Shown in pieces: positions 1-64,000 of a stretch of 64,000 nucleotides of DNA. Below the pieces are notes generated by a model that saw only the letters and a program-made list of their open reading frames with translations, was not told where the DNA came from and ran no database searches. The stretch comes from a virus. The position numbers and the translations under genes are program-made. The stretch lies in IMG/VR virus record IMGVR_UViG_3300044701_003269, positions 64,001 through 128,000 of that record; one strand, 5' to 3'. The stretch's first letter is position 1. Each line of letters opens with the position of its first letter.

Positions 1-108
1 AACTGTAATCTTACCAACAAAGAAATGAAGATTACATTCAATGAATACTGCCGTTTACATCCTCCAACTTATGTTGTAGAATCAGGTAGTCAACTCAGTT
101 TCTTCTGA
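1..108 (+). CDS. 3' end of a hypothetical protein (partial)
   Basis: Open frame from base 1 (NCNLTNKEMKITFNEYCRL...SFF) to TGA at 106-108. Confidence 0.6.
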   Translation, partial: NCNLTNKEMKITFNEYCRLHPPTYVVESGSQLSFF

Positions 109-116
109 GTTTTTAT

Positions 117-398
117 GCGAGTATGGTGGAATCGGTAGACACACCAGACTTATGAAAATTGAGCCTCATTTGAGAAATCTTATGAGTGTAATTCCTCAAA
201 TTCGGTGAAACCTGTAAAATGGCAATACCGAGCCAAGCATCGTAAGATGAAGGTGTAGAGACTAGACGGGGAACACCTAAACCGAAAGGTATGGTGAAGG
301 TATAGTCCAGACCACAAACCGAAAGGGTAGTGAAAACTATAGTGGTACGAAAATCTGTTGGGCGTATGCCCGTGGGAGTTCAAGTCTCCCTACTCGCA
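117..398 (+). tRNA. trnL-UAA: tRNA-Leu(UAA), intron-containing (exons 117-151 and 350-398)
   Basis: Acceptor GCGAGTA/TACTCGC, D arm GTGGAATCGGTAGACAC, anticodon arm CCAGA-CTT^AAAA-TCTGT after joining exons, long variable arm GGGC-GTAT-GCCC, T arm GGGAG-TTCAAGT-CTCCC; no encoded CCA. Confidence 0.95.
152..349 (+). ncRNA. Group I self-splicing intron (trnL-UAA/IC3-like), 198 nt, no internal ORF
   Basis: P1 CUU/GAG with U151.G161 wobble; P AAATTCGGTGAA, Q AATACCGAGC, R GTAGAGACTAGA, S AAGGTATAGTCC; P7 GACTA/TAGTC; P3 TTCCTC/GGGGAA; terminal G349. Confidence 0.93.
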
Positions 399-443: not shown

Positions 444-713
444 ATGAAGTACAGAATTGATGCCGCTTATGTCTGGTACAATCGCGGAAGACAAATCGTT
501 TTAATGTACTTTATAAATTCTATTCCTTTTACTTTTGACGAACTCCCTGACGAATCTTTATTTGACTTGGAGTTAATTGAATTAGCAGACAAAGAAAGAC
601 GTTTTGAACCTGAAGACTTATATCAATCTTCTTATTACTTAATTTTAGAAGAATGCCACCCTTTGCTTTATGAGTTGGATTTAGAAAATCCAGAGTGTAT
701 GCCTGCTGATTAA
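444..713 (+). CDS. hypothetical protein, 89 aa
   Basis: ORF with upstream AGGA and TAAATA (414-419), lying between the two tRNAs. Confidence 0.8.
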   Translation: MKYRIDAAYVWYNRGRQIVLMYFINSIPFTFDELPDESLFDLELIELADKERRFEPEDLYQSSYYLILEECHPLLYELDLENPECMPAD

Positions 714-715
714 AT

Positions 716-787
716 GCCCTTGTAGCTCAGTGGTAGAGCAACGGTTTTGTAAACCGTTGGCCGTCTGTTCGAATCAGATCGGGGGCT
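716..787 (+). tRNA. trnT-UGU: tRNA-Thr(UGU)
   Basis: GCCCTTG/CGGGGGC acceptor, GCTC-AGTGGTA-GAGC D arm, ACGGT-TT-TGT-AA-ACCGT anticodon arm, GTCTG-TTCGAAT-CAGAT T arm. Confidence 0.95.
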
Positions 788-1140: not shown

Positions 1141-1761
1141 ATGAAATCAGATTTTTATATAGATAGGGTAGGTAAAGAAGAAATAAAAGAACTTCTTTAT
1201 ACCTATCATTATCTTAAAGACGAATCTAAAGATTTCAAATCGCATTTCAACTATGGGCTTTTCAGATCCTCAGTTTCTGATATTCTTAGGGTTGGTGGGT
1301 GCTTGGGCACTTGTATCTTTACTGGGTTACCAGTCCCCGAAATAGCAGTAGGTGCGTTTGGTTTAGAAAGAAACCAACAAGAAGGTATATACGAACTCTC
1401 AAGACTTTGTATACATCCCCTTATTCAAAAAGAAGAATATAACATCACATCTTGGTTCGTTAGTCGTTGCATAAGGAGATTTAAAAAAGATGCCCGCGTT
1501 CGTGCTATTCTTAGTTACGCTGACAATAATCAGCACTCTGGAATTATATACAGAGCTTGTAATTTTCAATACTATGGTTTGACTGATAAGAAATCGGACT
1601 TCTGGATAAAGCAATCTGATGGTTCCTTCATAAAACATTCAAGAGGTCCAATTAAAGGATTAGAAGGTGAATGGAGAGATCGTAGTCGTAAACATAGATA
1701 CCTGATGATATTTGATAAGGAACTGAAGAAAAGGTTGACGTGGGAAGAGAAATCGTGGTAA
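1141..1761 (+). CDS. Mom-like GNAT-fold protein, putative DNA modification enzyme
   Basis: Motifs HYL, YELSRLC, SWFVSR, ILSYAD, HSGIIYRACNF typical of the Mu Mom-like family. Confidence 0.7.
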   Translation: MKSDFYIDRVGKEEIKELLYTYHYLKDESKDFKSHFNYGLFRSSVSDILRVGGCLGTCIFTGLPVPEIAVGAFGLERNQQEGIYELSRLCIHPLIQKEEYNITSWFVSRCIRRFKKDARVRAILSYADNNQHSGIIYRACNFQYYGLTDKKSDFWIKQSDGSFIKHSRGPIKGLEGEWRDRSRKHRYLMIFDKELKKRLTWEEKSW

Positions 1762-63045: not shown

Positions 63046-63553
63046 ATCGCAAATACATTATCACTTTTGCATTGGGATTCCTTGCAATCATTGGATGGAA
63101 TGTGTTTCTAATCCAACGTGATGAGAAACTCTATGATTCATACTATCGCGCAAAAGCGATGGAGAATCTAAAGAAACCACCTTCTGCTGAAATACGGTGA
63201 TTTACTTTCTTCTTATTTCTGCAGCATTTGGGTGGTTCTTTTATGTCCTATTCTCCAAACATTTTGATTACTTAGACGAGAGAAAAAACAAATGATTCCT
63301 AAACTACTTCGAGAGCTGATTATGAACGCCGAACGCGAAAAAGTTGCCCGTGATTTTTGGGACGAGATTGAGCGTCTTGCTGCCGAAAAAGAAGTGACTG
63401 TCGATTATTTCTTAGCTGAGTTTTACTGATGATTTTTATTGCTGGATTTGGTCTTGGTATTCTAGTCACAATCGGAGTTGCACTTATTGTCTCTGGTGAT
63501 ATTGACAACAACACTGATTTTCGTTAAACTTAAGGAGTAATTTACAAACAACA

Positions 63554-63796
63554 ATGGCACAAAAGTTTCTCTACATTGTAGACCACTACATTCCTTTTCC
63601 TTCTAGTGAATATGGCGGACTTTGGAATGTAATTGCAGAAGATGATAACGAATGTTTTGATTTGATTTCTGCAGAAGATGATGGTAATTTCTACGAACAG
63701 CACTATACTGTTCTTCGTGAAAACATCTTAAATGCAAGAACTTATGCACTTGCCGAAGACTTGCAATCCACTGTTGTTGAAAGCTTTACGACCTGA
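63554..63796 (+). CDS. hypothetical protein, 80 aa
   Basis: YIVDHYIPFPSSEYGG. Confidence 0.75.
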   Translation: MAQKFLYIVDHYIPFPSSEYGGLWNVIAEDDNECFDLISAEDDGNFYEQHYTVLRENILNARTYALAEDLQSTVVESFTT

Positions 63797-64000
63797 TGAT
63801 TAATACTACAATCAACCGCCTGGAATTCGATTTGAAAGAACAGTACCAGGCACAAATTAATCGTCTTCAAAATAAGATTAGCGAGCAGGAACAAGAGATT
63901 GCCAAACTCAAAACACTGATTTCTCTTCTTACTATTGAACGAGAGTATGATTGCTGAATTTCCGCACAAAGCCCCAAAAGATTATAGTTATGAGTTCGAA

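Follow-up and report, generated by a model that had tools for sequence, protein, structure and literature searches.

Among group I ribozymes, the standard small model is the IC3 intron of roughly 205 nt in the tRNA-Ile(CAU) gene of Azoarcus sp. BH72. The intron described here is built along the same lines, as a compact IC3 intron in a tRNA anticodon loop with a GAAA L2 loop and a CCUAAx/UAUGG receptor in P8, and its core strings at J3/4-P4, J6/7-P7 and J8/7 appear strongly similar to those of Azoarcus. The two introns differ in the tRNA that is interrupted and in the insertion position. At 198 nt the present intron is also slightly smaller, its P5 consists of 2-3 bp with an 8-nt loop, and two GAAA hairpins branch from its P9, a three-way junction.

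A second point of comparison is the psbA gene of cyanophage S-PM2, in which Zeng, Bonocora and Shub are said to have described, in 2009, a group I intron with an adjacent free-standing endonuclease gene, F-CphI, and to have named the arrangement 'collaborative homing'. Here too an ORF-less group I intron lies in a cyanomyophage gene, and in relatives of this phage a free-standing endonuclease gene stands beside the interrupted gene. In contrast to S-PM2, the target is a tRNA gene rather than a protein gene, the genome itself lacks the endonuclease, and the HNH family found in the relatives, whose cleavage specificity is putative, is also intronic in other phages.

According to a 2014 review of bacterial group I introns, all phage introns found up to then were in protein-coding genes, despite the many tRNAs that phages encode (PMC3984707). 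Devoto et al. (2019) stated that phage tRNA introns were previously unreported and described 'enigmatic' introns in the tRNA genes of Lak megaphages (PMC6784885). Like the intron studied here, those introns interrupt phage-encoded tRNA genes, but they were called enigmatic and were not classed as group I, whereas the present one is a bona fide group I intron. In the open-access literature and bioRxiv we found no description of group I introns in the tRNAs of phages or cyanophages, including under the smallest known introns. The intron as such is an ordinary member of a classical family; the interesting part is its setting and its endonuclease partners.

The split tRNA-Leu(UAA) gene and its group I intron

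The intron lies near the start of the window, by which we mean the whole stretch of DNA analysed, 64,000 nucleotides long (positions 64,001 to 128,000 of IMG/VR record IMGVR_UViG_3300044701_003269). The whole contig of this phage of small cyanobacteria has 174,186 bp (174 kb) and 36.9% G+C, and carries psbA and psbD as well as long tail-fibre genes that resemble those of P-TIM68 and S-BM3. The T4-type major capsid protein (Pfam Gp23) was not found in this 83%-complete contig, in a search that was silent on the control genomes too, and we therefore call the phage a cyanophage that is myovirus-like by its tail fibres rather than T4-like. The contig has 12 tRNA genes, of which only the split gene is a tRNA-Leu(UAA), and in the long ORFs of the phage UUA accounts for 30.7% of leucine codons, more than any other, so this tRNA should matter to the phage. 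The features of the locus are as follows.

1..108, + strand: 3' part of a conserved phage ORF of 59 aa (phrog_1308), which starts 71 nt before the window
54..82, + strand: sigma-70-like promoter match, TTTACA-17-TAGAAT, about 35 nt upstream of the tRNA 5' end
117..151, + strand: tRNA-Leu(UAA) exon 1, with acceptor stem, D arm, 5' half of the anticodon stem, and C32 U33 U34
152..349, + strand: ORF-less, IC3-like group I intron, 198 nt, assigned by Rfam RF00028, helix map and covariation
350..398, + strand: tRNA-Leu(UAA) exon 2, with A35 A36 A37 A38, the 3' half of the anticodon stem, the long variable arm, the T arm, the acceptor 3' strand and the discriminator A398
444..713, + strand: conserved downstream neighbour gene, 89 aa (phrog_4134), used as synteny anchor
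716..787, + strand: tRNA-Thr(UGU), conserved partner of the tRNA-Leu locus

The promoter match is a possible promoter for the tRNA, although the region has no more such sites than expected by chance. The phrog_1308 ORF separates tRNA-Leu from an upstream LAGLIDADG-like gene. About 750 bp downstream of tRNA-Leu, window positions 1141-1761 encode a Mom-family DNA-modification protein (Pfam PF25680, E = 3e-21) that is weakly similar to HNH/homing endonuclease PHROGs.

Exon 1 ends at the 5' splice site, U151, and the intron is placed between anticodon residues U34 and A35, which gives the CUU/a...g/AAAA arrangement of class Leu.3Ug. When 152-349 is deleted, the CU-UAA-AA loop described in the preliminary description is restored exactly, and ARAGORN recognizes the product as a class II tRNA-Leu(taa) of 85 nt in which no arm is disrupted and the variable arm is long. 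The boundaries first proposed for the gene (117-398) and for the intron (152-349) are correct. Run on the window with default settings, ARAGORN missed the split gene and called only the neighbouring tRNA-Thr. Its intron-aware mode called 117-398 as a tRNA-Tyr(ata), i(38,196), a mis-parse with a 196-nt intron; we rejected this call, since a U.G splice pair, a CUUAAAA loop of 7 nt and agreement with intron-less alleles are obtained with the 198-nt parse alone. Exon 2 shares 92-96% identity with the 3' halves of the tRNA-Leu genes of S-SCSM1, S-TIM5 and S-CAM4, and in about 250 GenBank cyanomyophage records the tRNA-Leu is uninterrupted and aligns with exon 1 and exon 2 as two adjoining pieces.

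The Rfam group I intron model (RF00028, Intron_gpI), a search that the preliminary description had proposed as a check, matches positions 142-331 over the full model (1-253) with 62.4 bits and E = 2e-13, against a gathering cut-off of 50 bits, and this is its sole match in the whole virus contig. Among 16 related phage copies, 12 score 53-69 bits. At the gathering threshold the model gave no match in the three GenBank phage copies (L002-L004) and missed four of the 16 viral copies, including one (L256) with an intron 97% identical to that of the window; these are probably misses by the fast filters of the search. The secondary structure comprises the following elements.

146-151/161-166, + strand: P1, with the U151.G161 wobble at the splice site, U150-A162, C149-G163 and an A148.C164 mismatch
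167-173/178-184, + strand: P2, with a GAAA L2 and tandem U.U/U.U
192-197/268-273, + strand: P3
202-207/226-231, + strand: P4
210-212/221-223, + strand: P5, very short (2-3 bp)
232-234/252-254, + strand: P6
238-241/246-249, + strand: P6a, with a GUAA L6a
260-264/303-307, + strand: P7, GACUA/UAGUC
276-277 and 281-283 with 288-290 and 293-294, + strand: P8, with a GAAA L8
311-315/342-346, + strand: P9, a three-way junction bearing two GAAA hairpins
319-320/325-326, + strand: P9a, with a GAAA L9a
327-331/336-340, + strand: P9b, with a GAAA L9b
349, + strand: omega-G, the terminal G, an invariant column of the phage intron alignment

The list includes every element named when the intron was first noticed, namely the U.G pair in P1, P3, P4, P7, the GNRA loops, the terminal G349 and a receptor-like motif in P8, which reads CCUAAA...UAUGG at 276-294. 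The absence of an intron ORF was likewise confirmed: no sense-strand ORF of 60 aa or more lies within 152-349, and the only overlapping frame is antisense, 67 aa long, with a TTG start.

Natural covariation agrees with this model to a degree well beyond chance. When 24 distinct related phage introns are aligned with plain MAFFT, 93.9% of the cells of the P1-P9 model pair, compared with 79.4% in shuffles and 25-41% with slid partners, and 31 of the 57 pairs show compensatory changes. All six pairs of P3 are compensatory; P3, P6 and P7 are 100% paired, P8 is 92-100% paired, and the helix joining P4 and P5 is paired in 94% of cells. The U.G at the 5' splice site is present in every one of the 24 introns. 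The minimum free energy fold recovers P2, P4, P5, P7, P8, P9, P9a and P9b, and the centroid adds P6a (z = -2.31).

Judged by sequence and covariation, positions 152-349 form a genuine group I intron of the IC3 type, structurally intact, within a phage tRNA-Leu(UAA) gene. The core helices, the covariation and the 198-nt length bear out the first reading of the locus as an intact and very compact intron at U34^A35. The intron is very likely functional, although the features of P1, P2 and P5 may mean reduced splicing activity or dependence on a protein chaperone.

Relatives and origin of the intron

No cultured cyanophage in GenBank matched the intron. Its GenBank relatives are the split tRNA-Leu(UAA) genes of three phages, namely two huge uncultured phages, LR756501 (205-nt intron) and LR756511 (700-nt intron), and the Agrobacterium jumbo phage Atu_ph07 (278-nt intron), in which the region is annotated only as hypothetical proteins. 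One 'hypothetical protein' CDS of Atu_ph07 (MF403008.1 112825-112941; L003:793-909) covers the 3' part of the split tRNA-Leu(UAA) and is likely a mis-annotation. Scanning IMG/VR for the P4-P6 core gave at least 119 stretches. Taking IMG/VR, the three GenBank copies and the window together, there are at least 38 split tRNA-Leu(taa) genes with at least 31 distinct introns; among the genes listed, 30 have introns of 192-216 nt, two have introns of 263 and 278 nt, and six have introns of 691-713 nt.

Splits in other tRNAs also occur among the IMG/VR core-scan matches listed. These lie on L023, L029, L030, L043, L054, L062, L070-L072, L085, L089 and L114, with inserts of about 178-210 nt and anticodons such as uuu, ucu, ccg, cau, uca and uga, and some adjoin a match to the intron-core pattern. 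Their boundaries and anticodons are guesses of intron-aware ARAGORN, and several are probably mis-parsed. Two viral contigs with a split tRNA-Leu also hold full-length tmRNA genes by Rfam (L049:7861-8241, - strand, 124.6 bits; L014:390-747, + strand, 118.6 bits).

In prokaryotes, scanned at one genome per species, the core was found in 120 loci, 66 of which are split tRNA-Leu(taa) genes; these come from many phyla, and their introns measure at least 202 nt. In betaproteobacterial tRNA(cat) genes, introns of 202-206 nt match the window intron over 75-136 nt at 72-84%. Among bacterial tRNA introns in general, sizes of about 186-206 nt also occurred, and those in tRNAs other than tRNA-Leu went down to about 186-197 nt. 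The term 'minimal', used in the preliminary description, therefore holds only in part. The intron does fall below the ~205 nt quoted for Azoarcus, but 198 nt is typical of a phage tRNA-Leu lineage in which most introns have 192-216 nt, and bacterial ones go down to ~186 nt. The length is small, yet no record.

The classical cyanobacterial trnL intron shares with the window intron the gene, the U34^A35 site, the U.G and omega-G rules and the P1-P9 plan. The insertion point is the U^AA site of the cyanobacterial and plastid introns, as had been recognized from the start, with the same CUU/a...g/AAAA arrangement, and both the guide sequence AAUUGAGCCU of the window's intron and its J2/3 are similar to those of cyanobacterial introns. 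In contrast, the core (P4, P7, P8 and P9) is of another sequence type, and the cyanobacterial copies sampled are 220-312 nt long, with longer P5, P6 and P9 regions, and are chromosomal, whereas the window's intron is phage-borne.

The shared site could mean that the intron was taken from a cyanobacterial host's trnL(UAA) intron and that the phage shuttles it between cyanobacteria, a link also drawn in the preliminary description. A quick whole-intron tree agrees with this view in placing the window subfamily beside the cyanobacterial clade (SH-aLRT 93), although the branch that leads to that clade is very long, at 0.96 changes per column. The two parts of the intron give different answers. Over the 39-nt P1'-P2-J2/3 segment, identity is 71% to cyanobacterial introns and 53% to other phage introns, whereas over the P3-P9 core it is 63% to cyanobacterial and 80% to other phage introns. 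The core-only tree separates the window's intron from the cyanobacterial lineage and places it in a group (97/87) made up of 26 phage rows and 3 Bacteroidota rows. The AU test rejects a clade that joins the window subfamily with cyanobacteria (p = 0.011, for a group defined only once the first tree was known), and an all-phage clade is not rejected (p = 0.48). The best matches of the phage's psbA (83-84%) are in cyanobacterial genomes of 2.3-2.4 Mb, and none of 61 sampled genomes (1.0-3.9 Mb) of the picocyanobacterial family with the closest psbA has an Rfam match to a group I intron; three other cyanobacteria have 1-2 such introns each. We consider an origin from the host's intron very improbable. 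By core grouping, the intron stands outside the classical cyanobacterial/plastid trnL lineage, and its core, on the sequence comparisons above, belongs to the phage lineage.

The intron looks mosaic, with 152-190 cyanobacterium-like and 191-349 phage-like. The cyanobacterium-like 5' module may reflect either recombination or a shared P1 design. The core tree also places inside the phage group the tRNA-Leu introns of three gut MAGs assigned to Bacteroidales/Rikenellaceae (L211, L222 and L231), which may be prophages or phage contigs binned with bacteria.

Polymorphism at the tRNA-Leu site and the HNH endonucleases

To survey the site we used gene 444-713 as the anchor and took the best 80 syntenic viral loci, which share the order tRNA-Leu(UAA), gene, tRNA-Thr. 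In these 80, tRNA-Leu is intron-less in 65 and has an intron in 12, with one more cut by a contig end; 2-3 gave no call. The intron is thus a presence/absence element at one syntenic site, and the survey supplied the intron-less alleles in related phages that the preliminary description had suggested looking for, some of them with the window's exact flanking exon sequence. At least three intron subtypes occupy the site, of 198 nt (97-99% identity to the window's intron), 199 nt (89%), and 209 and 218 nt (68-77%).

The long introns of 691-713 nt encode an HNH endonuclease ORF (L088, L094, L005, L108 and L004). A homologue of this intronic ORF (47% identity, E = 5e-49) occurs as a free-standing gene between tRNA-Leu and the anchor gene, where it adjoins both intron-plus and intron-minus alleles; L110, the nearest relative, with an intron 99% identical to that of the window, has such a gene. 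The free-standing HNH genes, and the variant tRNA alleles beside some of them, are the following.

L110:3693-4154, - strand: free-standing HNH gene
L322:1000-1464: free-standing HNH gene
L277:1000-1464: free-standing HNH gene
L254:1029-1481: free-standing HNH gene
L259:983-1462: free-standing HNH gene
L326 and L327: free-standing HNH genes
L254, L288, L259, L326 and L327: intron-less alleles beside HNH, with an anticodon arm that departs from the usual GA-CUUAAAA-UC

We found no copy of the HNH family in the window genome, and no HNH gene between tRNA-Leu and 444-713. The window intron encodes no homing endonuclease, and since its genome lacks the HNH family, this copy cannot home alone.

An HNH gene stands beside 3-5 of 13 intron-plus alleles and 5 of 65 intron-minus alleles, counts that come from few, related contigs. 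The 31-39 base pair beside the anticodon loop is changed in all five intron-less HNH-adjacent alleles, as against 11 of the 60 others, a difference that represents about three independent lineages. These variant alleles may be endonuclease-resistant target sites. The pattern hints that the HNH endonuclease recognizes the DNA of the tRNA-Leu anticodon arm and that either an intron or a mutation of the site gives immunity. Downstream of a tRNA-Leu with a 199-nt intron, this slot is taken by a different ORF of 106 aa, Cys/His-rich (CQSC...DLHHID), at L273:1151-1471 and L279:1151-1471, which is possibly another HNH-type nuclease.

The window genome does have one endonuclease-like gene close to the split tRNA, which is free-standing and lies about 190 bp upstream.

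Window -502 to -74 (G000 63498-63926; L001:857-1285): LAGLIDADG-like ORF, 142 aa, motif LVGIFEGEGWF

Its matches to Pfam LAGLIDADG_1 (21.4 bits, cut-off 23.1) and to I-AniI and I-HjeMI in the PDB (E about 1e-3) are weak, and it matches PHROG 5046, which is labelled 'HNH endonuclease', at E = 3e-23. The gene is an insertion of about 500 bp that is unique to the window genome and absent from L110, L083 and L039. None was found at the 80 syntenic loci, and tblastn gave no match in any other intron locus. We considered this gene as a partner of the intron and rejected it: it is absent from all relatives with the same intron, and so is not needed for intron maintenance. It is probably an unrelated free-standing homing gene.

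Explanations for the intron and their implications

The best explanation, to which we give a probability of about 0.8, is that the phage's sole tRNA-Leu(UAA) gene is split by an intact, ORF-less IC3 intron, a selfish element of the homing type that belongs to a phage-borne lineage. The signature of a selfish element lies in the several unrelated subtypes at the site and in the endonuclease genes that travel with them.

Given the observed anatomy and covariation, we infer the steps of splicing from the established chemistry of the group I family. The precursor would fold by pairing AGACUU, at the end of the 5' exon, with the internal guide GAGCCU, which sets U151.G161 at the splice site. An external guanosine would then attack after U151. 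Next, omega-G349 would enter the G-binding site of P7 and the 3'-OH of U151 would attack after G349, and exon joining would yield the normal CUUAAAA anticodon loop. The small core is probably braced by the L2 GAAA loop with the P8 receptor-like motif, together with the GAAA loops of P9a and P9b. As for mobility, the polymorphism of the site and the homology and adjacency of the HNH genes are observed, and it is probable that tRNA-Leu(UAA) DNA without an intron is cut by the HNH endonucleases when phages co-infect a cell. The window copy would have lost its endonuclease, or never had one, and would persist because it splices, in a gene for the leucine codon that the phage uses most.

Two further readings concern what the intron does for its carrier. 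It might benefit the phage, by timing the supply of tRNA-Leu(UAA) through splicing or by shielding the tRNA from anticodon nucleases, and both roles had been proposed in the preliminary description. The likely importance of the tRNA, with UUA as the top leucine codon, would fit such a benefit, as would the 97-99% conservation of intron sequences among a dozen contigs. However, 65 of the best 80 close relatives do without an intron at the same site, several unrelated subtypes occupy that site in the company of endonuclease genes, and no regulatory element was seen at the locus. Nucleases that act on mature tRNA, moreover, would meet the tRNA after splicing in any case. Neither proposed role is supported, and we regard a benefit to the phage as very improbable. 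Still harder to credit is that the intron is a decaying, splicing-defective remnant, which would make tRNA-Leu(UAA) effectively a pseudogene. The mismatches in P1 and P2, the very short P5 and the lack of an endonuclease for maintenance could be read as signs of decay, but these mismatches recur throughout the subfamily, every core helix is intact along with the U.G pair and omega-G, the exons fold into a flawless tRNA, and several near-identical copies exist in different contigs.

The preferred reading, a selfish homing-type intron of a phage lineage, can be extended, more tentatively, to the locus as a whole. The tRNA-Leu(UAA) genes of phages might be a battleground between one HNH family and a lineage of minimal group I introns, an idea that we think possible and would not yet favour. 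The HNH endonuclease would cut the anticodon stem-loop DNA of rival phages, and immunity would come from an intron that splits the site or from mutation of the pair that flanks the loop. The public data hold a series of alleles with neither element, with a free-standing HNH gene and a mutated site, with a free-standing HNH gene and an intron, with an intron alone (the window), and with the HNH gene inside the intron.

With at least 38 split tRNA-Leu genes and at least 31 distinct introns, predicted self-splicing introns in phage tRNA genes are common. One likely reason why they have been missed is that default tRNA finders skip split genes, and for that same reason phage tRNA inventories are under-counted. 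At 192-216 nt these introns are among the smallest natural group I ribozymes, and because natural covariation defines their helices well, the lineage is useful for work on ribozyme structure and engineering. The alleles at one syntenic site that lack an intron, have an intron only, have a free-standing endonuclease or have an intron with an endonuclease make a testable system for the joining of introns with endonucleases and for competition between phages. If the tRNA-Leu genes are indeed contested in the way proposed, the alleles would form a natural series that shows the assembly of a mobile intron from separate parts.
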